64,000 bases of DNA, taken from assembly GCA_027923505.1 (NCBI GenBank), contig BROI01000009.1:806001-870000 (forward strand), read 5' to 3'. The notes beneath the pieces were generated by a model. It was not told the origin of the DNA and searched no databases. It saw only the letters and a list, made by a program, of their open reading frames with translations. How positions within the stretch are numbered: position 1 is the stretch's first letter; every line of letters begins with the position of its first letter. Source of the stretch: Mayamaea pseudoterrestris. Taxonomy: Eukaryota. The translations under genes were made by a program, and so were the position numbers. Of the stretch, positions 4,500 to 44,000 are shown piece by piece.

Positions 4500-4731
4500 C
4501 AATCAGCGTGGGCGCTGATTGCCCTCTGTCGCTCGGCTGCTTCGTTCTTCCAAAGTGTTGCGCGCGTTGGCGCGCTTAGACTTGCTCGTGCCTCAGGTGG
4601 CTCGACGAGTGTAGCGAGAGTCGGGTCGCATGGTCTGAGGAACACGGAGTGGACTCCGGGTTCCCAGAGCAGGAGACACGTCATGGATGACGCCTGAGGA
4701 GAATCCTGTCTTGCAGGATTCGCCACAACCC
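4500..4731 (-). repeat. Split direct repeat B2 (3' terminus of the element)
   Basis: Direct repeat of 4975-5205 with only a few differences. Confidence 0.92.
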
Positions 4732-4746
4732 GGGTGGGTGGGCGGG

Positions 4747-4974
4747 AACAAAAACGGAGATGCTATTGCTAACAAGGGTGCAAGAGCTGATCCGAAAGGA
4801 ATGGCTTGCCGCTGAAAGCCGATGGCTTGGAGGGATGTCCAAGTGTCGCAGCAGCAGTCTCAATGTCCTAGCGGCAATCTCAATGTCATCCAAACTGTGT
4901 CTGCTACTGTACCCGTAGGTTTCCTACGGGTAGTCCCTAGGGCGGGCTCCTCTGTGCATCCGCTCTAAGCCGGA
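4747..4974 (-). repeat. Split direct repeat A2 (internal)
   Basis: Matches 13062-13233 apart from a 56-nt insert at 4790-4845. Confidence 0.92.
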
Positions 4975-5205
4975 CAATCAGCGTGGGCGCTGATTGCCCT
5001 CCGTCGCTCGGCTGCTTCGTTCTTCCAACGTGTTGCGCGCGTTGGCGCGCTTAGACTTGCTCGTGCCTCAGGTGGCTCGAAAGTGTAGCGAGAGTCGGGT
5101 CGCATGGTCTGAGGAACACGGAGTGGACTCCGGGTTCCCAGAGCAGGAGACACGTCATGGATGACGCCTGAGGAGAATCCTGTCTTGCAGGATTCGCCAC
5201 AACCC
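4975..5205 (-). repeat. Split direct repeat B1 (internal)
   Basis: Direct repeat of 4500-4731. It abuts A2, so the junction ccgga|caatca reproduces the joined element ends. Confidence 0.92.
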
Positions 5206-5476
5206 ACACGACTCAGCGAGCAAGGCTGAAGGCGTCAAGCCACAACAACAGAGTGCCTGTGGCAAGAACCGCGGAAAGGAAGAAGAAGGAAGCAGGGGAA
5301 AGAAAGGAGAAAAGGTCCTGGTCAGTGCAATGTTGGGAAAGGGAGGACGTCAGGTGAGGAGCGCCAGGACGATCTGAACTCGGGGGAGTCAGTGCCCTTG
5401 GATGCAAACTTGAATTGTCCAATCCTCAAGTTCCCAATGCAAGAAAGAATGGGTAAATGAAAAGGTGTATTTTTAA

Positions 5477-6778
5477 TTATAGCATTATTGCGCCTTTAAT
5501 GGCATTGCTGGTAAGTGTACCAATTTTTTCTGAACATTCGCGTAAATAATGGTGCACCGAAGGTGGTGACCAGCGTAAGCGAAACGCTATTTCTTCAATG
5601 CTCATACCAGAGTTATTGAGTGCTACTGCAGCAGTAACGCGATTTGAATGAGCAACAATTCGTGTAATGTTGAGTCGTAGGAAGTGGTTTGGATTGGGGT
5701 AAGCGCCAATCACTGCCTGCCGCATTACCCGGATTACGTCGCGCGCTTTGAGGTAATGGTAGTCGCCATTGTTGTTGTAGCGAAAAACTCCAAGTGGTTC
5801 TGCGTATGGTGCCTTGTGAAGAATTTTGGCACGTAGAATCAGCGAAATGCTGGCCCGTATAGGGCAGATAAATTTATGGCCCGAGCGTCGAAACTTGCGA
5901 ATCGTAAAATTGTTTTGGCTTTTGTCAAACCGGAAACGAATGTGTAATTCATACGCACTTTCGCCTGCTTTATGTAACATGGAATGTGGCAAGAGAACGT
6001 TGCATTTTGTATAAAAAACAAAGTCGAGGTCCACAAAGCCTAATGGCCAACCTGCCCATTGACCAGCGTCTCTGCTGTTGGGTACTTTGCTAAAATGGCC
6101 ACGTTTGGCAGTGGACTGTGCATATTCGTTAGCGCGTGATCCTGTGAATACGCCAAGGCAAGTCCAGTCAAGAACAGAGGCTTCCAGATCCAGGTGCGCA
6201 GTTGTGTCCGTGGTTGCTGCTGCACAAACAGACTGGTAGAGGAAGTCAAACATGCGATGCGTGTATGGCTCGCGTTTTTCCTTGGTTGTTTGCCATTTCC
6301 GACGACTGTCCAGAATATCAGCCAGTAAGGGATGGTGGCCCGAGCCGCGAGGATCTTGGATCGAAAATCTGCGTTGTACAAAAGTCTCCAGGAATGAATG
6401 GGCTGAGTTCAGGTAAGTTACCAATGATTTGGTGCAGAGAGGCGTGGGATCTTGTTGGGTGGCAAATTTTTGTGATTTCTTTTTAGCCAGCAGCGATTGT
6501 CCCCTTGAAACAACATCAAACATGTATGCGGCAATTACCGAGATTTCTTGCCCCGGTGCGAGCGCTGTAAGAGACTCGTCCGTAAACCCTGCGTCGATCG
6601 CCCATTCACCAAAATTTTTGGCGCGGCTGTCAAATGTTTTATCGTTTTTGGACCGTATGTCGCCTCGTTCGCGCTCCCGTCGATCACGGAGGAGATTGTC
6701 AAAAGCAAGTCGCGCTCCACTCGGTAAATGCTGCATGTTGCTAGCGCCTGCGTTTCCGGCGTGATAACGGACTCCCAC
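5477..6778 (-). CDS. Tyrosine recombinase of the retrotransposon
   Basis: Catalytic residues present: FTGSRANEY (R), FDKSQ (K), HSNR (HxxR), RWS...HY (W, Y). First ATG at 6736. Overlaps the end of the RT ORF. Confidence 0.9.
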   Translation of the reverse strand: MGVRYHAGNAGASNMQHLPSGARLAFDNLLRDRRERERGDIRSKNDKTFDSRAKNFGEWAIDAGFTDESLTALAPGQEISVIAAYMFDVVSRGQSLLAKKKSQKFATQQDPTPLCTKSLVTYLNSAHSFLETFVQRRFSIQDPRGSGHHPLLADILDSRRKWQTTKEKREPYTHRMFDFLYQSVCAAATTDTTAHLDLEASVLDWTCLGVFTGSRANEYAQSTAKRGHFSKVPNSRDAGQWAGWPLGFVDLDFVFYTKCNVLLPHSMLHKAGESAYELHIRFRFDKSQNNFTIRKFRRSGHKFICPIRASISLILRAKILHKAPYAEPLGVFRYNNNGDYHYLKARDVIRVMRQAVIGAYPNPNHFLRLNITRIVAHSNRVTAAVALNNSGMSIEEIAFRLRWSPPSVHHYLRECSEKIGTLTSNAIKGAIML

Positions 6779-9594
6779 GACTCCGTCGAGGTTTTGAAGC
6801 GAGAAAGTCGGTCCGCCTCCACATTGTTGGCTCCCGGCAAGTGACGTCCCTGGATGCAGAAAGTGAGACAGCTGTAAGTGGTGATGGCCTGTAAGAATCG
6901 TGCCAGCCTACGAATTTCAGGATCCCGGCTGCGCGCAGCGTGACGCATCCAGGAAAGGGCCGAAGTATTGTCGGCCAAGACGCTAATGACATGTTGGTTG
7001 TGTTTGGTTTGTGGATTTGCCATTAAAGCACTCAGCGTGAGAATCACATTTATTATAATGGCAATGAACTCCAGAATGTTGATATGGAGGGGATCACCAG
7101 TGGTGTGATGTGCCAATTCATGGAATGCTCGCATTGGAATGTTACAACTGAGCAGGTCCGATGCGTTGAGGCACCACATAAACAAGAGCTCAATATTCCA
7201 GCCTCCAACGCCAGACATGCTCGCATCACTTTTCATGGTGTTTGTTGGTACCCTTGGAATGAGCAGACCAATTGGCTTGCGCCATACGTGTGACCATTTG
7301 TCCGTGTTTAAAGTTGGACGTAAAATGCGCAAGTCGGCCAGTGCCTCCTTTGATATAGCAATCCTTGTTTTGCTCCACCATTGACGGCGAGCATAGTTCG
7401 CATTGGGGCTGGAGCGAAATGCTGCGTCGGCTTTACTTGCTGCGTCAGTGAGAGACTGCTGTAGGCGGATGGAAAGGAAATCGGCGAGATCACTGACTAA
7501 AGTTCCATGGCATATTAAACCCAATATTTCTGCCTTTTCCACTGGCGTGACTGTAATGTAATCAGGCCGAAAACCGGTTGGTTTGTCACTGAGGCGATCA
7601 ATGAGAGATGCCAAGCGTGCCTGTTTGTCCGCAGGCCAGGACAATTCCATACGGCGCGAATCCCAATCAAGACCCAAGTAGAGCAGTTTGTGTGAAATTT
7701 CCATTTTCCATTTGCGTGGGTTGATACATAAAGCGCGTCGCGCTGGAGTTGGTTCACCAAAAACAATGCGAGCCGCAATGACGCTTCTGGTAATTGCGTT
7801 CAAAATCGTGCCGCGTGTCGCCGCGACGGCTTGATCGTCGACAAAGCTGGAAAAGCCAAATCTATAGTCGCGTCCAAGTATTGAGCGAACACCCGTGTTC
7901 TTTGAGTCTGCCGTTGACTGTTGAAATGTTGCAATGGTCTCGTTGGTGGGCTCGTCGCTTAGCACTATTGTGTTTGACAGGTCGGTGGTGGCCTCGCCAA
8001 TATCAAGGAGCGCAGCAATCTGGCTGCGTAGTTCACCAAGTATCATGTAGTATCCTGGTGAATTTCGTGCGCCAAAAATTAGCCCCACCGGGACGACAAG
8101 AAATGGACCAAGGACGGATGCAAAAGCCACAGCAATGTCTGGGTGGTAGTGCAGCCAGCGGAACGCAGCTGATATGTCATCAGCAGCCAGAAAAATCTCA
8201 TCGTCCGGATTATCGAGGCGCATGTTATAAATTAGCTGGAGATAGCGGCGCAGCACAGTGCCGTAATACACTCTTGGATTGAACTGGTCACTGTCTGGGT
8301 GGAGAGAGTCTGGAATTTGCTTGTTGATCATGCCTTCGTCTGTTGTTGTAATTGGATTTGATGGATCGCATACAATCCGCCCTTCGTCACCAAGACGGCC
8401 CACTTTTGGAGGGATGTAGGAGATAATGGCAAGGAACAAGCCTGGGATAAACTTCCATAGAAAGCGAGGAAACATTATGTGGTATGACATTTTTTCTTCC
8501 TTGCGGAATTTGTCCGTTACGTCGTCCCAGCACTCGTCCAAACGACGGTTGTCAAGCTGTTCTCGTGCACGAACATCCTCAAATTTGCCAACAAAGTTGC
8601 TTTTACCTGGAACGCCTTCATGAATAATGCGTATTGCTTCATCCAATTTCACCGGTGGATAATCCGGTGGGCGCGAGGCAGTGCGTAGCGTTTCCACGAC
8701 ATCACAGAGTAGCGAGCGATCTTGGTGCTGGTAGGTGTATTCACCACCAAGCCAGCGCAGTAAGTCACCATAGTTAACGTCAAAGCGTAGAAGGGCTGCA
8801 CCCATGTCATTTGCTCGAGTCATGCTGATAGGTGAATCGTCGTCCGCCGGAAACAGGCGTGGCACACGTAGGTGTGGGACGGCTCGTGCTGTTGCACGCT
8901 GGCGCAGAAGTGCATATTTTTCCCAACAAGGTTCAACAGCAGCCATTGTTTGGCGATCTGAGACTGTAAGCCACTGCCATACAAGGTGTAAGGCCATGTG
9001 GTGCGATGGCTGTGCGTGTCGCGTCGAAATATCAGGAGTCGCTTTGCCCCAACCAAATTTTCGTCGAAGCCAAATGCGTGGATCAGGATGCATGACGGTT
9101 GTTGAACCAAAGACTGGATGTAAGAAATCAGGATATGCAGACTGTAGGGTTGCTGATTCAGTGTCCGTTAAAAATTGCCAAACTGGGGCCATGATGGTTG
9201 CCAGAAAGTGATCCCAATTGTATCGCGTCACAGAAGAGGCGCGAGTTGGTTTGCGATGTGTGCATCGGAGGAGTCGAACTGGCCGCGCACCAGTTGTTGG
9301 AATGTGTGGCAGAATGTTGCGCAGGGATTGGTTGCAAATGGATACGGAGGCTGGAGTCGACGGTGGGACCGTGTGCCTCATCTCCACGAGAGTGTTTGCT
9401 GTTTCAATCCGCGGGTGATGGCAATTGTGTCGTCTCAGCGTTGTTGCAGCAGTCCAGTTCAATGTTAATTTGTGTGATTTTTCTATAGTTGTTATGTAAA
9501 AAGGCACAATTGGGATAAGTTGAGCTTGGCCCATCCTGTGCTGCTTGTGCGCCCGCCGGCGTCGCCGACAATGTGTCGAGATCGAGTGTTTCAC
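6535..9594 (-). CDS. Reverse transcriptase-RNase H of the retrotransposon
   Basis: RT motifs DDISAAF, LIFGARNSP, FVDD, YLG. DIRS-type RNase H motifs SDAS, HINILE, ADN, HLPGANNVEADRLSR. No methyltransferase domain evident. Start codon uncertain. Confidence 0.92.
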   Translation of the reverse strand: MKHSISTHCRRRRRAHKQHRMGQAQLIPIVPFYITTIEKSHKLTLNWTAATTLRRHNCHHPRIETANTLVEMRHTVPPSTPASVSICNQSLRNILPHIPTTGARPVRLLRCTHRKPTRASSVTRYNWDHFLATIMAPVWQFLTDTESATLQSAYPDFLHPVFGSTTVMHPDPRIWLRRKFGWGKATPDISTRHAQPSHHMALHLVWQWLTVSDRQTMAAVEPCWEKYALLRQRATARAVPHLRVPRLFPADDDSPISMTRANDMGAALLRFDVNYGDLLRWLGGEYTYQHQDRSLLCDVVETLRTASRPPDYPPVKLDEAIRIIHEGVPGKSNFVGKFEDVRAREQLDNRRLDECWDDVTDKFRKEEKMSYHIMFPRFLWKFIPGLFLAIISYIPPKVGRLGDEGRIVCDPSNPITTTDEGMINKQIPDSLHPDSDQFNPRVYYGTVLRRYLQLIYNMRLDNPDDEIFLAADDISAAFRWLHYHPDIAVAFASVLGPFLVVPVGLIFGARNSPGYYMILGELRSQIAALLDIGEATTDLSNTIVLSDEPTNETIATFQQSTADSKNTGVRSILGRDYRFGFSSFVDDQAVAATRGTILNAITRSVIAARIVFGEPTPARRALCINPRKWKMEISHKLLYLGLDWDSRRMELSWPADKQARLASLIDRLSDKPTGFRPDYITVTPVEKAEILGLICHGTLVSDLADFLSIRLQQSLTDAASKADAAFRSSPNANYARRQWWSKTRIAISKEALADLRILRPTLNTDKWSHVWRKPIGLLIPRVPTNTMKSDASMSGVGGWNIELLFMWCLNASDLLSCNIPMRAFHELAHHTTGDPLHINILEFIAIIINVILTLSALMANPQTKHNQHVISVLADNTSALSWMRHAARSRDPEIRRLARFLQAITTYSCLTFCIQGRHLPGANNVEADRLSRFKTSTESWESVITPETQALATCSIYRVERDLLLTISSVIDGSANEATYGPKTIKHLTAAPKILVNGRSTQGLRTSLLQRSHRGKKSR

Positions 9595-9604
9595 CTTGGT
9601 GGAG

Positions 9605-12600
9605 TCAAGATGATGCCGTGTTAAACACAGCTGAAGTTTCCAAAATGGCCGCTACCGCTGGCTTGCGAAAAAATTCAAGAAGCGGGCGAAGTTTCTCGCG
9701 CGTCCAAGTTCCAGTTGGGTCTGGAAGCACAATGTGGTGGCGTGGACAGTCTTTTACATCGCACCCGGGGGATCCATGCAGCGCATGGAAAAGGCATAAT
9801 TGTTTTCCTTCAAACACTGGAGCTCGGATTGGGGGAGTGCGGCGACTCAAATGTTGAAAAAGTTTCCGAACTGCGGCACCGGAACAGTCGGTGCCATCAC
9901 GCCAACGTGCCAACGAAGCAGGAGCTTTTAAATACGTACCGGTTGTTTCGCGCTTTTGTGCGGCTGAATTCTGTTGGCTGGCGCCACCTGTTGAGGTTTT
10001 TGGTTGGGTGGACGACTTGTCGTGATGTTTTGCCTTCTCAGGCAGGACGTCCGTGGGGGCTTGCCGTTTAAAAGGCCCAAAATTGGGCAATTCCTTCGCT
10101 GTAAGATTTTCAATGGTAATGCCCCTCATGGTGCTGGATCGCCATGCTGCAAGTGCCTCACTTAAGGGTTCAAAGCCATTGTTGTCTAAAAACATTTTGA
10201 ACGCGCAGACATCGGAGCGTGACTGCTGGGAGTGAAGCAGTACTCGCACACAATGATCATCGGAGTCGAGTGACATGGCCCAGTCAATAACAATGCGCCA
10301 TAAATTGCAGATAGAGTTGATGACAGCAATTGAGCAAGTTAGTTTTCTGTCGGTCGACATGTTGGACCATGTTTCGTGCAGCCGCTGGTTAGCGAGGAGC
10401 TGGATCAGCCAAGCTAGTTGACCAGCGAATGGAGATGCAAGTAGCCAAGGTGAGAGTTCAGGATGTACCTCGCGCAGTGCTGGGAATCGAACTTGGTTTG
10501 TGAAGTGGATATGGAAAAACCATGCGATATTCTTCGTCAGTTGCGCTAATTTGGCGCAGTCCAAGCCATCCTGTGTGAAGCGGTGCCCAGTTTTTTGGAC
10601 CGTTTGAATGAAGCTCCATGGGCTGATATAGGAATCAAAGGTGCAGGTTGGATCATCGCCTGCAAAGAAAAGGCCTGATTGCAGTGCTTTTATGTTATCA
10701 GGTGTGGAGAAGAAGTCGTTGTTGGCAAAGCTCGGTCGCGCGTAAGATTCCATTGTGGAGTTTTGAGCGGCGCGAAGTTCGTTGCTGAAATGGTTTGTCA
10801 CGTGGCCTGGAATTTTCGACTCGAGTACGTTTAAAGTGTACTTTTTTGACACGTAGCCTGGGATGAGAACTTGCCAATCTGGGAAACGATGTCCTTTACT
10901 GTCGTCTCGTGGACCCATGTGAAATCTTGGATCGACAGCAATGGCTCCAAAATGAGCAGCCAGGACAATAGCGTTGGAGAGTCCATCCTCCACGTAGGCT
11001 TGGCGATTAAATCGGTCGGGTTGCGAAGAAGTGGCCGGAAAGAGAAAATCAATGTTGCGAGAGAGCATCTTTGTGCCCATTGTAAAATATGGCAACAACT
11101 GGGTGTGTGGTTGCTCGTATGGCAGCAGAAACGTTGAGTTTGAAGTTGTTGTAACTGTATTGCGCGCAGGTAATTTAAATGACATTCGCGGTGGCGAGTG
11201 CTGTGCCGGTTTTGTGCCAAGATAGTCCACCGACTTGTCGTCAGTGTAGGCCTCGTATTCGATGTCCATGTAGCCAAGCTTCTGTTGCGCGCTATAGTCA
11301 AACAGCGCCTTCCTCTTGCGGCGCGAATCGGGTGGTGAAGGTGGATTTTTTGACATTGCAGCGCGTGATTGTTCATCTTCCGCCACAGTGGGCGCCCGGT
11401 TTGGTGTTGCTACTGTATGCGAGAAGCCCATGGCCGCTAGAATATCCAATGCTGCTGGAGCCGGTTGGCTATCTTGTTTTGCAGCAGATGACGGAGATTG
11501 CGCATCTGAAATTTTGTCTTTTAATTCGATGCGCAGCGAAGCAATAAAATCGTCGGAAGATTCCGCCGGCAGGTCGACACTTGCAAACCGATTCCAATGG
11601 GGCAGCAAATTTTGGCGAAGGAAAGGAATATGAAAGTTTTCAATCCACAACTTTGCCTTGGGATTGACGAGCAATGGCAAATGGATTGTGTCCATGAGAT
11701 ACTCTTTATTCCACTCAGCAATGTCGGGTGACTGCTGGAGAATGGCCATTCCTTTTTGCTCATAAAGCGTTAGCTTGTTTCCCCACTGTTTTGTGAGTGA
11801 ATGCCGGAGGTAATCCCACATCCAACTGAAGCGGATCTTTGTTTCCGGATGGAGAATGGCAAGGTGCGAGTCCAATGATTGCTCAAGTTTCCAACTCTCC
11901 CAGGACTCGTGCAATTGTGCCATGAACAAAGTGTCAAGCTTCATGGCCGCCGCCTGGGTGGCGCATGCTGCAAGAAAAGTATCCAAAATTGGATTATCAA
12001 TCATCCAAGCGTAGGCCTCGTCTGGTAGCTCCGTGAACTCCATGCAGAATGCCTTGAGGAGCGCTCCAGTGTGGCAGCGCAAGTGATCGAAAGGGACCCC
12101 AAGTGGGATGCCGTGATGGCCTTTTGGTATGAACAGCGCACGTTGCTGCACAAGCGTGCGCAGGTCGGGCATATTTTCCGTTGTCACAGGACGCTTCGTT
12201 GTCACAATCGCGAAAGGTTTGTCGCCAGAAGTGAAAGTGGGAGGCGTTGGTCCCAGAAAATACTTGCCAGCAGGGTGATCCTTTGGAATGTCCTCTTTGT
12301 GGACCAGGAAGCAAGCTGGCTGGGTCAATTTTAAGCCATTGGCAAAGACCAAGGCGTCGTGCAGTACTTCGGAATGCCGAGTCGCAGGAGCAGTCACCAA
12401 AGTGGCGCGCGTGTTTCTTGTCAAAATTGACACAACTGGGTTGACGCTGGATGGAGCCGCGACGTTCAGTGGCTGCAAGTGAGACCAAGCTTCCAACAAG
12501 AAGGAAGGTTCCTTGGCTCCGGCAGATGTATCCAATGCGTCCAAAGTGGCTTGGTTTGTTTGAAGTAAAAAGGCATTGCCGTTGGCAGTACCAGAGGGCG

Positions 12601-13015
12601 CCGCAGAGCAAATCAAAGCGTGATTGGCGTCGAGCACTTGCCCTGGAATCGAAAAGCTCGAGAGAGTAATCATAGCGCCAACGTTGGCATTGCCCATCAT
12701 TTTGAGCTTGTCAAGTGCGCCGAGGTAAATGTCGCCGGCGTCGTCGTCAGGCTCCTTTGTCTTGACCGACATGCGCTGGTTGAGCGCATAAAACTCCTCC
12801 TTTGTCAACCATTTGTGGAGCACTTTTTCCTTGTCCTTCTCCTTGTCCCAGCTTCCATCAAGCTGGAGCTCCATCGCCTTGGCGCGCTCTCCTTTAGGAG
12901 GAACATTATCCGTTCCAAGCCACGTGGTCGGCAAGGCAATCTCCTCCGGCCATGAAAGGGCCACAGGAGCGCCCCCGAACTCAGCTAGGGAAGGAAAACG
13001 AAGACGAATGAGCAT
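9605..13015 (-). CDS. ORF1 (gag-like) of the retrotransposon
   Basis: About 1136 aa from the first ATG at 13015. C-terminal CCCH-type finger CLFHALHGSPGCDVKDCPRHH. First-ORF position in the element. Confidence 0.8.
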   Translation of the reverse strand: MLIRLRFPSLAEFGGAPVALSWPEEIALPTTWLGTDNVPPKGERAKAMELQLDGSWDKEKDKEKVLHKWLTKEEFYALNQRMSVKTKEPDDDAGDIYLGALDKLKMMGNANVGAMITLSSFSIPGQVLDANHALICSAAPSGTANGNAFLLQTNQATLDALDTSAGAKEPSFLLEAWSHLQPLNVAAPSSVNPVVSILTRNTRATLVTAPATRHSEVLHDALVFANGLKLTQPACFLVHKEDIPKDHPAGKYFLGPTPPTFTSGDKPFAIVTTKRPVTTENMPDLRTLVQQRALFIPKGHHGIPLGVPFDHLRCHTGALLKAFCMEFTELPDEAYAWMIDNPILDTFLAACATQAAAMKLDTLFMAQLHESWESWKLEQSLDSHLAILHPETKIRFSWMWDYLRHSLTKQWGNKLTLYEQKGMAILQQSPDIAEWNKEYLMDTIHLPLLVNPKAKLWIENFHIPFLRQNLLPHWNRFASVDLPAESSDDFIASLRIELKDKISDAQSPSSAAKQDSQPAPAALDILAAMGFSHTVATPNRAPTVAEDEQSRAAMSKNPPSPPDSRRKRKALFDYSAQQKLGYMDIEYEAYTDDKSVDYLGTKPAQHSPPRMSFKLPARNTVTTTSNSTFLLPYEQPHTQLLPYFTMGTKMLSRNIDFLFPATSSQPDRFNRQAYVEDGLSNAIVLAAHFGAIAVDPRFHMGPRDDSKGHRFPDWQVLIPGYVSKKYTLNVLESKIPGHVTNHFSNELRAAQNSTMESYARPSFANNDFFSTPDNIKALQSGLFFAGDDPTCTFDSYISPWSFIQTVQKTGHRFTQDGLDCAKLAQLTKNIAWFFHIHFTNQVRFPALREVHPELSPWLLASPFAGQLAWLIQLLANQRLHETWSNMSTDRKLTCSIAVINSICNLWRIVIDWAMSLDSDDHCVRVLLHSQQSRSDVCAFKMFLDNNGFEPLSEALAAWRSSTMRGITIENLTAKELPNFGPFKRQAPTDVLPEKAKHHDKSSTQPKTSTGGASQQNSAAQKRETTGTYLKAPASLARWRDGTDCSGAAVRKLFQHLSRRTPPIRAPVFEGKQLCLFHALHGSPGCDVKDCPRHHIVLPDPTGTWTREKLRPLLEFFRKPAVAAILETSAVFNTASS

Positions 13016-13061
13016 GATGATGATGATGAGGAAAGAAAGCGGTTTGAAGCTACAGGCAAGA

Positions 13062-13233
13062 AACAAAAACGGAGATGCTATTGCTAACAAGGGTGCAAGA
13101 GCTGTCGCAGCAGCAGTCTCAATGTCCTAGCGGCAATCTCAATGTCATCCAAACTGTGTCTGCTACTGTACCCGTAGGTTTCCTACGGGTAGTCCCTAGG
13201 GCGGGCTCCTCTGTGCATCCGCTCTAAGCCGGA
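13062..13233 (-). repeat. Split direct repeat A1 (5' terminus of the element)
   Basis: 172 bp matching A2. Host sequence gaccgaagccgag resumes at 13234. Confidence 0.92.
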
Positions 13234-14038: not shown

Positions 14039-14864
14039 TCTCGTTGCTTGCTATCCATTTCACAACAAACCCATCAACTATTCGGTCATATACAACCTGT
14101 ATCTGCTATACGCGCCGCCTGCTAAGTGGCAACTGTTAAAATAAGGTACCAATTTTTGCTAATCTCCATATGAAATTCCGTATTTCTATAATTTGTCACT
14201 GCGCTGGGAATGGCAGGCACATATGCATCATGTATTCATATCTTTTAAGTCTTCAACGACTGGAACAGAAAATCAAATTGAAGGATATATACTTTGACAC
14301 GAGTAAGTTGCGCGGTGCGTCTTTGAGTTAACGTACATATAGCCCATCCAACAGCCCATGACATTGCATTTTGAAGGCGAGTATCTTGCGAAACGGCCTT
14401 GACAACCGCTTCTTTGAAGTTTGGTCGGTTCTTCGCATGCCGATGAACCAACTGCACGTAATATTCGTGACCGCATTGACAGTGAGTAGGATGCGATACA
14501 TCACCGGCACACCATCACCGTAGTTGGCGATGAACCTGGCCCACTTTGGATTGATACCTGCTGTACCATGTATTTCTAAGCATTAAAAGTTTGGTTCCGA
14601 TGCTGAGACCCCATCGACACATTGGAAACTCATTTGCATAATTGCCAAGATGTGCAGCGATTCGTCGGTTTTTTAATCGTAACTGCGAACTTTTACGGTG
14701 CTTGCACTTTTCTTCGTAAACTACGATAGCAAAAGTCGCTCCAGAAACGGTACGACATATCGTACCAGTAGACAGATCCTTTCGCTTGGTGCGACGACGA
14801 CACATCACATCCTTCACCTTTCCCCACTCGTTTGGTTGCTGCGATCAGGTAAATTTCAAGTAGA

Positions 14865-15695
14865 ATGTCCTCTGGAGTCGACTACTCCAAATGGGACAAG
14901 TTAGATTATGGATCATCTGACGATGAGGGCAGTGGCAGCGATCAGGGTCAGGCTGAAAGTGATGTTCGTGGTCAGCAACCGCGCGTCACTAGATTCGACC
15001 AGCCCTCCACAATTACCCGAAATGTAGACGGCGAGCTCATTGTGGAAACCCAGCATGACGCAGGGGAAATGGTAGCGTTGACAGAGTCGCTTAAGTACCC
15101 AAAGGAGTCTACCGGTACCGGTAGAGCTGACTCCGCTTTTGCCGATGAGAACCCCACAGACTCCGCCTTGGCGAGCAGTCTGTCGAACGACACTGCTACA
15201 ATACCAAAGACATGGACTGAAAAGGGCTCTTTTGAGATTGTCCAAGGATGCGAAGTTTATTGGAGTCAAGATCGCTACTCTGTAATGATTCGCATCGCGC
15301 TTCCAGAGGAAGGAAAGTGGACCTGCGTCGTCTCAAGTCTGCTGGCATACGCCGATCGATTTGTTGCCGTTGGGAGCGGACCAAAATCATTATTGGAAGT
15401 TTGGCGAGCCGATTTAACAAATTCTGTATTGATGCGGTCGGAAATTGCTTATCCTGTTCATGCTACGGAAGATGACGAAGGGGTAGACTGGTCCATCGAA
15501 CGCATCGGCGTTCAGAGATTTCTGTCAGTCACGTTGAACAAAGCCACGCCAATGGCTGGCATGACGCTTTGGTGGAAGCGTCCACTCTCGGAAATGAAGG
15601 AAATATCGATGGATTGGAGGGAACCATCGTCAACGAGCTTTCAGAAAGTATGGAATGAAGCTCATGCACAATTTTACGACAAGCATCGAAACTAA
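14865..15695 (+). CDS. CS-domain (p23/NudC-like) protein with an N-terminal DYSKWD motif
   Basis: 276-aa ORF. YWSQDRYSVMIRI ... VDWSIE ... LSVTLNKA ... WWKR is typical of a CS domain. Confidence 0.7.
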   Translation: MSSGVDYSKWDKLDYGSSDDEGSGSDQGQAESDVRGQQPRVTRFDQPSTITRNVDGELIVETQHDAGEMVALTESLKYPKESTGTGRADSAFADENPTDSALASSLSNDTATIPKTWTEKGSFEIVQGCEVYWSQDRYSVMIRIALPEEGKWTCVVSSLLAYADRFVAVGSGPKSLLEVWRADLTNSVLMRSEIAYPVHATEDDEGVDWSIERIGVQRFLSVTLNKATPMAGMTLWWKRPLSEMKEISMDWREPSSTSFQKVWNEAHAQFYDKHRN

Positions 15696-38899: not shown

Positions 38900-39045
38900 G
38901 TAAGCGCACGGTAAGCTGCAACCGAAGGAGTGGATCGAGGACGATCACTTCTTGGAGAAAATAAGTAAAGTGGTTTTATTGACTCTGTTCTGCTTAATCA
39001 TTAGTGTCGCTTCAAGGGCGCGCAAGATATATTCTAGATCCAACA
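38900..39045 (+). repeat. 5' LTR lacking its first ~67 bp
   Basis: Shares about 91 bp with the 3' LTR and ends in CAACA. Confidence 0.85.
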
Positions 39046-39072
39046 TTTTCTCCAAGAAGCGAGTGAAAAGAC

Positions 39073-42000
39073 ATGTCTTCGACGAGCAATACTCCGACGA
39101 CAGGAGCGGCGTCGAGCGGTGGAGGTGCACCTCCCGCTCCGCCAGCAAGCGAAGGAAACCGACGCACCGTTCATTATCTTCGTGAAAATCGTGCTGGGAA
39201 TCGTTCCGGGAATCAAGGCAATGGTAACAGACTCAACGGACCGAGTCGTGCGCCGAGTGGAAATTTCAAGGAAGCGAGCCGACGCTCGCTGGATTCATCT
39301 ACGACTATAACGGTTCGCGCGATCCCGATGGATTCATCCGTACGACGAACGAGATCATCACTTTCGTCGGGCGCTCCTACAAGAAATATACCAAGGAGCT
39401 GCTCAAGGGCATGCGCAACGTGGAACTGGAGATTCCTGACGAGCCTGCACGTCCAACGAAGGATGCCGACACGACGGACTCGGACTGGTCCATAATGCTC
39501 GAGGAATACAAGGCCGACAAGAAAGAGCATGTCGAGCGCGTGCGTGTATACTCCGACTTCCTCGCTGGTCTCTACGCCGTGTTGCATGGACAATGCACGG
39601 AGCGTATGAAGGATCGTGTCAAGTCGCACGCCAAGTTCCGAGACGCCGAGGAGGACACGGACGGAATTAAGTTGCTGGCGATTATCAAGGAGATCTCGCA
39701 TACGTACGAAGGGCGCTGCAAACTTGTGGATCAAGTCGTGGACATTCAAGCTGAGTTGTTCGGACGTACTCAAGGAGCGCGCGAAAGCCTGCAGAAATAT
39801 TACGAAAGCATGGTCACGCTGGCAGACGTGGCGAAGGCGGTTGGCGTCACGATGCACAACGAGATTGTGGCGTTGAACATTGCCAAGGATGACAATCGTA
39901 ACAAGGCGAACAAGGAGGATATCAAGGCCGCCGAAGAGCTCGAGCTTGCGATGCTTTTCGTGCGTGGCGCAACGGGCGAATACGCTGGGTATTGCAAGCA
40001 CTTGCGCAACTGCTACCTCGACGGGCACGACAACTTCCTGTTGACGATCCACGATGCATACAACATCATGCAGCGTCGTGAGCATGCGGATGGAGAAGCC
40101 ACGTTGCCAACGAACGAGGGCGTGGCGTTTCACACGACTGGTACAGCGCGTGACCCTCCCAGATGCTGGACCTGTCAACAGGTTGGTCATGTGCAGCGAG
40201 ACTGTCCTACGAGAACGGAGTCTACGGAGAGTGCGCCGGCTGCAGAGGCTAGTGGGGCGCAGCACTTCACGCTGGGTAGCGAGGAAGAAAGCGATGACGA
40301 CGATGAGGTCGGATACATGTTCGCGCAGCCGCCGAAGGTGAACATCTCGAAGAAGGCTGTGCTCTTGGACAATCAGTCGACAGTGGATCTGTTCTGCAAC
40401 GCCAAGATGCTGACGAACATTCGCCCGGTGCCAACGTGGATGGTGATCAAGTGCAACGCTGGTACAGTAAGGACGAACATGATGGGCGACCTGGAGGGCT
40501 ATGGTCCGGTGTGGTGGTATCCGCAGGGACTGGCGAACATTTTGAGTTTGGCGCAAGTCCGCAAGAAGTTTACCGTGGAGTATCTCATGCACGGCGTGGA
40601 TCGTCAATGTTCGTTGTGGAGAAGCCGGATGGTAAGCAGCGAGTTTGTCGAGACTGACTCTGGGCTGTATGTTTGCGAGAGCTTTTCGAAGGGCAAGCGC
40701 AGCGATGTCAAGGATGGAGTGGCGATGTTGACTACGGTAGACGATAACCGTCTACCTACACCAATGATGACTATTTACGCGCTGTTAGAGCTAGGGAACT
40801 GCAAATCAAAATTGGACGGCCAAGCCTCAAGGATTACCTGCGCATCGTTACTAGCAATCAGTTGCCGAACTGTCCTGTGACGAAGGCCGACATCCTGGCT
40901 GCTGAGCACATCTTTGGACCAGATGTTGGCTCGTTAAAAGGAAAGACGACGCGTCGCGCGTCGCATCTGGTGAAGCCTGCGATTGTTGAGCAGCTTCCAC
41001 CGGCTATCATGAGTCGCTATCGAGACGTTACTCTTTGTGCTGACATCATGTATATCAACAAAGTCCCTATGTTGGTGACGTTCTCCCGCAGCATTCGTTT
41101 TGCTACGGTTGAGGTGATTCAAAACCGTACGCTTCCGGTTATGTTGAAGGCAATCGAGTCTGTGTTGAAGATTTACGCACGCGGTGGGTTCCGTGTCGTC
41201 GCGGCTCTGATGGATGGGGAGTTCGCTCCAATGCTGGCGCGTTGGCTGATCTCGGAGTGGCGCTCAATGCGACATCTGAGGATGAACACGTTGGCGAAAT
41301 TGAACGTTTTATCCGTGTCGTGAAAGAACGGGTGCGCGCGACATACAACACGTTGCCATTTAAGCACGTGCCGGCACGCTTGGTTATCGAAATGACGAAG
41401 TCTGCCGTGTTTTGGTTGAATGCGTTTCCGAACGAGCGTGGCATTTCGAAGGATCTCAGTCCACGCACTATTGTGACTGGTCAGACAGTTGACTTTAATC
41501 GGCATTGCAAGTATGAATTTGGTCAGTATGTGCAAACGCATGAGTCGCACAGCAATGACATGCAGGCGCGCACGATCGGTGCGCTGGCTCTGCGCCCGAC
41601 TGGTAATGTGCAGGGTGGGTTTTATTTCCTCAGTTTGTCTTCGGGCAAAGTTCTGAATCGTGGGCACGCTACGCCTTTGCCCATGCCTGATGATGTCATT
41701 GAGCGCGTGCATCGTCTCGCTCGTCAACAGAAGGCCAATCCGGGCATCGTGTTCATGGACCGCCACCGTGTTGCGGAGGCTGCTGAGCCAGTCATGTGGC
41801 ACGAAGATGACGCCGAGGATGATGATGACTCTGATTATGATGACGACGCTTCTCGCGGTGACGACGACTCTGCCGGCGGAAGCGAAGGAGTGAATGCGAC
41901 CGATGACGACGACGACGACGACGATGGTGCTGACGGCGCAATCGAAGGAGTGCCGAACGACGAGGATGGTGAGGCCATTGACGGCGAACTTGACGACGCG

Positions 42001-43913
42001 CCAGCCGTGGATGATGGCGAAATTGAAGGAGTGCCCGATGAAGGCGAAATTGAAGGAGTGCCAGCTGCTGCGGACGAAGAGGATTTCGATGCGCGCTATG
42101 GCCCACGCACTGGTCGGTATGGCCTGCGTGCGCGCAAACCTCGCTCGTTCGCTCATTTGTTCACGCTCGACGCTGCAGAGGAAGTGTCGGAGCCACTCGT
42201 CACGGCACAGATGAATATGCGACAAGGTTTAAAGGCTTTTGGCGATGCTGGAGTGGAGGCAGTGCGCAAGGAAATGCAGCAGCTACACGACAGGCACGTC
42301 ATGAAGGCAGTCCCCCAATGCACTCTGACTCCGCAGCAGCGCAAGGACGCTCTGGCGTATTTGATGTTTCTCAAGCGCAAGAGATGCGGGACTGTGAAGG
42401 GACGCGGATGCGCGGATGGACGCAAGCAACGAGCATACACTGCAAAGGAAGACGCAGCATCTCCAACGATAGCGACAGAGGCCATCTTTCTGACAGCTAT
42501 CATTGACGCTATGGAAGGGCGCGAGGTTGCTGTGGTTGATGTACCGGGTGCTTTCATGCAAGCGGAAATGGATGAGTTGGTGCACGTTCGTTTCACTGGG
42601 AAGATGGTGGAGCTACTGTTGGAAATTGATCGCGAGATGTACGAGCCTTGCGTCACAATGGAGAATGGCGAGAAAGTCATGTATGTTGAATTACTCATGG
42701 CGCTTTATGGTACGCTTCGAGCAGCGCGACTATTCTGGGAGAAGTTGTCCGCAAAATTGCTTGAGTGGGGCTTCGAGAAGAACCCGTACGATCCGTGTGT
42801 GTGCAACAAGATTGTCAATGGGAAGCAAATCACCGTGGGATGGCACGTGGACGATTTGAAGATTTCGCACGTCGACGTGAGCGTAGTGGATGAGTTCATC
42901 GCGCAGATGGATGAGGAGTTTGGCAAGGAGACTCCAATGAATAAGTCACGCGGAAAAGTGCACGACTACCTCGGCATGGTATTGGACTATACTAAGCCTG
43001 GAGAAGTAGCAATCAACATGGTTGACTATGTGAAGAACATCCTGCATCATGCGCCAGACGACATGGATGGAACGGCAGCTACTCCGGCAGCCAGTCACTT
43101 GTTTCAGATATCGGAAAATCCTGTCATGTTGAGCGAAGCGAAGAAGCGAATTTTGTGACGATTGTGATGCAGTGTCTGTATCTGAGTCAGCGAGCGCGAC
43201 CGGATATTCGCACAGCGATTTCTTTCTTGAGCACGAGGCTGCAGCAGCCTGACGAAGACGACTATAAGAAGGCTGCAAGAGTGATTAAATATTTACGCGG
43301 AAGCGTGGACATGGTGTTGACGCTGAAGGCGGACCAGTCCGGGATAGTCCAGTGGTGGGTGGATGCGTCGTACGCGGTGCACCCAGACATGAAGGGTCAC
43401 ACTGGTGGAACAATGACACTTGGACCAGGATCAGTGTACAGTACGTCGGCTAAACAGAAGTTGGTAACAAGAAGCTCGACGGAGAGCGAAGTTGTGGGAG
43501 TTCATGATGTGCTACCGCAGTTGCTGTGGACAGGATATTTTCTGAAGGCGCAAGGTTTCGGGGTCAAAGACACGAAATTGTATCAAGACAATATGAGTTC
43601 AATGCTGTTGGAAAAGAATGGCAGAAGCTCAAGTACAAAGCGCACGCGACACATGAATGTTCGGTACTTCTTTGTGAAAGATCGCGTGGCAGCTGGTGAA
43701 GTCAACATTGAGCATTGTCCGACCGGAGACATGGTCGCGGATTTCTTCACGAAACCATTGCAGGGAGCCCAGTTTGGCAAGCTCCGCAACCTGGTTATGA
43801 ATCTGGCCTCGAGCAGTAAGTACTACTCGGCCCAAAGGAGTGTGTTGAGCATGGATGAGAACCCAAACCGAAGCGGCAGCGGTGACGTCACGAAGACGGT
43901 CACATTTAAGTAA
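39073..43913 (+). pseudogene. Copia gag-pol polyprotein with several frameshifts
   Basis: Zn knuckle CWTCQQVGHVQRDC, protease LLDNQST, integrase CADIM / MDGEF / EIER, RT DVPGAF / LYG / WHVDD, RNase H VDASYA / TESE / QDN / ADFFTKPL. Confidence 0.9.
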
Positions 43914-44000
43914 GCGCGGTAAGCGGCAACCGAAGGAGTGGATCGAGGACGATCACTTCTTGGAGAAAATAAGTAAAGTGGTTTTATTGACTCTGTTCTG
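43843..44000 (+). repeat. 3' LTR lacking its last ~53 bp
   Basis: Starts TGTTG after the short purine-rich aaaggag. Host sequence resumes at 44002. Confidence 0.85.

Follow-up and report, generated by a model that had tools for sequence, protein, structure and literature searches.

A Copia family in the diatom Mayamaea pseudoterrestris that likely primes reverse transcription with the 5' end of its own RNA

What primes reverse transcription in a Copia element that lacks a tRNA primer-binding site of the TGG type after its 5' LTR? This question is raised by an element at positions 38900 to 44000 of the window, the 64,000-nucleotide stretch of Mayamaea pseudoterrestris DNA analyzed here, in which, as originally noted, no TGG is found after the LTR. 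The element is a frameshifted, end-clipped (dead) copy of a young Copia family, and all of its features given below are on the forward strand. The 5' LTR remnant, at 38900 to 39045, covers approximately LTR positions 68 to 211 of 211 and terminates in CAACA (39041 to 39045), with the A at 39045 as the last LTR base. It is followed by a polyprotein (39073 to 43913), a purine-rich tract that is likely the PPT (43834 to 43842; relatives have a similar motif before the LTR), and a 3' LTR remnant (43843 to 44000; positions 1 to 158 of 211), so that the 5' LTR has lost ~67 bp at its start and the 3' LTR 53 bp at its end. The polyprotein has the domain order Gag-PR-IN-RT-RH, with PF07727 matched on homologues, which is the Ty1/copia order and bears out the earlier assignment to Copia. 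Gag contains one CCHC knuckle, and frameshifts break the polyprotein reading frame in this copy. A protein in NCBI labelled Mayamaea pseudoterrestris (P0002) is 99% identical to the window polyprotein, and RNase H catalytic motifs are seen in it.

The sequence that abuts the LTR is complementary to a segment inside the LTR. The two arms of this inverted repeat, at 38945 to 38962 and 39045 to 39062, are 18 nt long with one mismatch, and in the exact core 38948 to 38962 pairs with 39045 to 39059. The original prediction had described a 15-nt exact complement at the primer-binding position; the match is indeed exact, but the 15th pair, which involves the final base of the LTR itself, is not a conserved one. 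Since the A at 39045 belongs to the LTR, the predicted primer-binding site proper is 14 nt long (39046 to 39059), and it is the exact reverse complement of the LTR arm at 38948 to 38961. In three related elements described below (L181, L189, and L190) the 15th pair is missing, so that the duplex is 14 bp. The 18-nt LTR arm is present again in the 3' LTR, as had been claimed, at 43953 to 43970 (43956 to 43969 for the 14 nt). A 14-mer of this kind is expected somewhere in the LTR with an analytic probability of 1.1e-6, and when the LTR was shuffled 20,000 times no pairing above 12 nt arose. The 14-bp helix is part of the minimum-energy fold in all six leaders folded, with modest z-scores for the whole leader of -1.8 to -3.7.

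At least 41 matches to the family were found when its own genome was searched. The full LTR is 211 bp, beginning with TGTTG and ending in CAACA, at 24 of the 30 loci fetched, and 29 of 31 LTR/primer-site junctions carry both arms exactly; of the other two, one has a substitution in the LTR arm and one has no LTR arm. Among 10 further copies, two diverged ones (L197 and L198) have substitutions in the loop yet retain intact arms, and several have deletions that take out one arm. A 5-bp target-site duplication flanks 10 of 18 LTR pairs examined, or 10 of the 12 in which both ends are readable; six pairs have an end that is truncated or could not be located, and two lack a duplication. The end-clipped window copy also has no target-site duplication, and 664 bp of host DNA (14462 to 15125 of a paralogous stretch in the window) are gone at its insertion site. 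In L031, another copy, the 3' LTR stops at the same LTR position as in the window copy, and the copy at L022 is inserted approximately 30 bp downstream of the 5' LTR of another copy, at the start of gag.

The site was compared with the tRNAs of the host, for which all 50 Rfam tRNA matches in the genome yielded 48 distinct ARAGORN calls, a set without Cys, Tyr, Gly-GCC, and Arg-ACG. Within this set, the longest Watson-Crick run between the primer site and any tRNA is 7 nt, or 8 nt with G-U pairs, and there is no internal tRNA stretch complementary to the site of the kind used in half-tRNA priming by copia, Osser, and Bianca type elements. For a within-genome control, we fetched 40 of 150 RVT_2 matches, found a repeat pair in 34, and dropped 8 as family duplicates or segmental repeats, which left 26 other Copia elements. 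The primer sites of 8 of these 26 match tRNA fragments over 14 to 17 nt, showing that the test detects tRNA priming where it is present. Pairing of the site with the element's own LTR was at most 6 nt in all 26, so that, of the Copia elements compared from this genome, the window element's family alone shows long self-pairing.

The next RT in this genome is approximately 36 to 38% identical, so that the family has no close sister there, and evidence for covariation was therefore sought in other sequence collections. Two scans provided 15 related loci (10 and 5, the latter five on likely eukaryotic contigs binned in bacterial assemblies), and two scans of viral contigs yielded no relative. The LTR/primer-site pairing can be tested at nine loci in eight families, as at least one arm is missing from the contig in L183, L185, and L192 to L195 (L195 being judged by match coordinates only); Gag matches across the eight families are mostly 34 to 49% identical to the window element. 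All 14 positions pair in 7 of the 9 testable relatives, with 14 Watson-Crick pairs in L181, L182, L189, L190, and L191 and 13 Watson-Crick pairs plus one G-U pair in L184 and L187. L188 retains 11 contiguous pairs and a bulge and L186 retains 9 contiguous pairs and an indel, and we read both as probably decayed copies. L184 had been considered a counter-example, which it ceased to be once its leader was found to exceed 700 nt upstream of gag.

The arms differ widely in sequence between families. In an anchor-based count, the arm of the window element and those of five relatives show 46 differences, 45 of which stay Watson-Crick and one of which becomes G-U, while the window element's arm would form only 4 to 6 of 14 pairs with the primer sites of these same five relatives. 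In a MAFFT alignment of eight sequences (without L182 and L184), 94.3% of cells pair and 12 of the 14 pairs have changed on both sides; none of 500 shuffles reached the observed pairing, and slid registers gave 40 to 56%. The structure scored on this alignment was derived from these very sequences and MAFFT misregistered the L191 arm, so the anchor-based count is the safer measure. No support was obtained for a further conserved helix adjoining the primer duplex (best, 27 of 45). Thus, the covarying complementarity that the original prediction had proposed to look for is found in the relatives, and the compensatory changes argue that the pairing is real and selected. Three of the relatives (L184, L188, and L190) have long leaders between primer site and gag; that of L184 terminates in a splice-acceptor-like tract, and those of L188 and L190 seem related in sequence.

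The position of the LTR arm also coincides with a proposed promoter motif. TCAH(+1)W has been proposed as the diatom initiator and is present in 68% of P. tricornutum promoters (PMC4686930). The first paired base, 38948, is the +1 of a TCAH(+1)W-like motif, TCACT, at 38945 to 38949. The TCA directly precedes the arm in the window element and in all nine testable relatives, eight of which fit TCAHW, and it is invariant though mostly unpaired. TCAHW is a common motif, with three sites in the LTR of the window family. In two unrelated Copia elements without self-pairing, L150 and L159, TCACTCTTTT is the sole TCAHW site in the LTR and lies 68 and 83 nt upstream of the end of the LTR, a placement that would be expected of a promoter motif and is indirect support for such a role.

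Taken with the tRNA mismatch, the covariation supports what had been proposed for this diatom Copia lineage, and we estimate a probability of roughly 0.88 that the family primes reverse transcription with the 5' end of its own RNA, in a manner like that of Tf1. Transcription is predicted to start at LTR position 114, that is, at 38948 or within one base of it, and the first 14 nt of the transcript would fold back and pair with the primer site, with a loop of approximately 84 nt between them. The element's RT/RNase H would then cut after base 14 to leave a free 3'-OH, and the freed 14-nt fragment would prime minus-strand DNA, with the last base of the LTR copied first and a blunt end as the outcome. 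Priming by the 5' end of a second packaged RNA is an alternative that we count as the same mechanism. In retroviruses, the primer-site stretch of plus-strand DNA is copied from the primer. Plus-strand DNA that ends in primer-site sequence has been described (PMC7175516), and if the plus strand of the diatom element copies its primer, a mutated LTR arm would pass its new bases on to the primer site. Such transfer would account for as many as 10 of the 14 pairs having changed on both sides.

Other explanations for the pairing have to be weighed against self-priming. Inverted repeats can arise in reverse transcription, and the pairing could in principle be a functionless by-product of template switching or local copying. 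We consider this very unlikely, as one position and one length are kept in eight families in which 45 of 46 differences are compensated, and the covariation data already largely refute it. There is a similarly slight chance that the site binds an overlooked host tRNA, tRNA fragment, or small RNA and that its match to the LTR is secondary. The tRNA set lacks the four species named above, and other Copia elements of this genome use unusual tRNA fragments, but each of the eight families has a different primer site, matched to the LTR of that family, while tRNAs are conserved. Furthermore, the 12-nt core of the site followed by a non-T base occurs at four places in the genome, none of which belongs to an Rfam family.

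A duplex that is selected for packaging, dimerization, or translation control, with priming by another route, is improbable too, if somewhat less so than either of these. Covariation demonstrates pairing and not priming, and a hairpin with no known role is conserved at this position in fungal GalEa elements (PMC5445492). Yet in every full case the pairing begins after TCA, ends at the LTR boundary, and has a constant length, a geometry that is required of a priming duplex and not of a generic stem, and the 48 tRNAs contain no alternative primer candidate. The pairing itself, its fixed length, its fixed position flush with the LTR and after TCA, and its covariation are observed, and self-priming is the reading that we prefer.

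Within the literature covered, self-priming has been demonstrated for Tf1-type Gypsy elements only and predicted for one plant Copia lineage. Tf1 and Tf2 of Schizosaccharomyces pombe and Tj1 of S. japonicus, a comparison case for self-priming (PMC4600332), resemble the diatom family, as do Tf1/sushi elements generally, in having a site that adjoins the 5' LTR and is complementary to their own LTR. In the case of Tf1, pairing involves the first 11 bases, and cleavage by RNase H falls between bases 11 and 12 (PMC7175516); that mechanism was shown experimentally for 11 nt, whereas the mechanism proposed for the 14 nt of the diatom family is inferred. Tf1/sushi elements are Ty3/gypsy and have IN after RT-RH, in contrast to the window element, in which IN precedes RT and which thus lies outside that group. 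Self-priming has been predicted for the TAR lineage of plant Ty1/copia elements (Houba and Osr-1, with Fourf in the same table row) on the basis of at least 10 bp that are complementary to the LTR and start 0 to 5 bp after it (PMC6317226). The window element, with 14 of 14 bases flush with the LTR end, falls within this definition. The background given with the original prediction, that Copia elements normally use tRNAs or tRNA halves, was incomplete in that it missed this prediction for TAR. TAR differs in being a plant lineage.

A quick tree built from 31 RT-RH rows groups the family and 12 relatives in one clade (SH-aLRT, 100) on a branch of 2.3, a length that calls for caution about long-branch effects, and this clade is separate from every other Copia element sampled in this genome. 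From this very long branch among diatom Copia, we infer an origin of self-priming that is probably separate from that in TAR. The long separate branch also fits CoDiII, described as the most distant CoDi lineage (PMC2806351), and the family shares with CoDi elements a diatom host, the Copia order, a length of ~5.2 kb, and short LTRs with TG..CA ends. Going by these descriptions, the family is most likely CoDiII (CoDi5). The main text of PMC2806351 does not describe primer sites, nor do the available portions of PMC2774666, PMC3601003, PMC8147415, and 10.1101/2025.10.24.684338 describe those of diatom elements. Fungal GalEa elements are likewise Copia without a tRNA primer site, and their CHS is palindromic, pairs downstream, and has no complement in the LTR (PMC5445492). 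The diatom site, in contrast, is not a perfect palindrome and has its partner upstream in the LTR, which places it outside the GalEa type.

In the literature covered, we found no report of self-priming in diatom Copia. It is somewhat more probable than an even chance that several features come together here: a deep-branching, widespread diatom-type Copia clade with self-priming separate from Tf1/sushi and plant TAR, a fixed 14-nt primer that starts at the initiator, a Copia RNase H that cuts an RNA-RNA duplex, and a genome shared with Copia families that apparently use four other nonstandard primer sites. That a distant Copia clade offers a case supported by covariation suggests that the switch from tRNA priming to self-priming has evolved repeatedly and that an RNA duplex can be processed by a Copia RT/RNase H. 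The start site, cut site, and primer length are predicted exactly, for a family with dozens of near-identical copies in a small genome. Self-priming may, in addition, be the reason that annotation based on tRNAs detects no primer site in such elements.

The 26 control elements show a variety of primer sites. Those of L162, L164, and L165 match positions 26/27 to 40 of tRNA-Asn(GTT) over 14 to 15 nt, flush with the LTR end, and L163, L172, L177, and L178 match the same tRNA with mismatches; priming by the 5' half of tRNA-Asn is likely for the L162/L164/L165 type, judging from these matches. For plants, only Met and Ile tRNA halves are given in PMC6317226. Half-tRNA-Met sites (positions 26 to 39) are found in L146, L160, and L179, with near matches in L147, L149, L152, L154, and L155, and the site of L157 and L158 matches positions 10 to 23, in the D-arm, of an initiator-type tRNA-Met, an unusual short fragment and not a half molecule. 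No site among the 26 matches a whole tRNA 3' end. L150, L159, L169, and L171 have a perfect 12-nt palindrome after the LTR end that differs per family, matches neither a tRNA nor the LTR, and is reminiscent of the conserved hairpin site of fungal GalEa. Several of the tested Copia LTRs do not have TG..CA ends.

Elsewhere in the window, a reading of the sequence upstream of the element as a tandem array was abandoned after the true LTR start was located. Positions 4500 to 13233 hold a further element, which has split direct repeats and long open reading frames on the minus strand. The window also contains a segmental duplication, in which positions 1 to 26465 and 33179 to 55669 are 96 to 99% identical, with a different inserted element in each copy.
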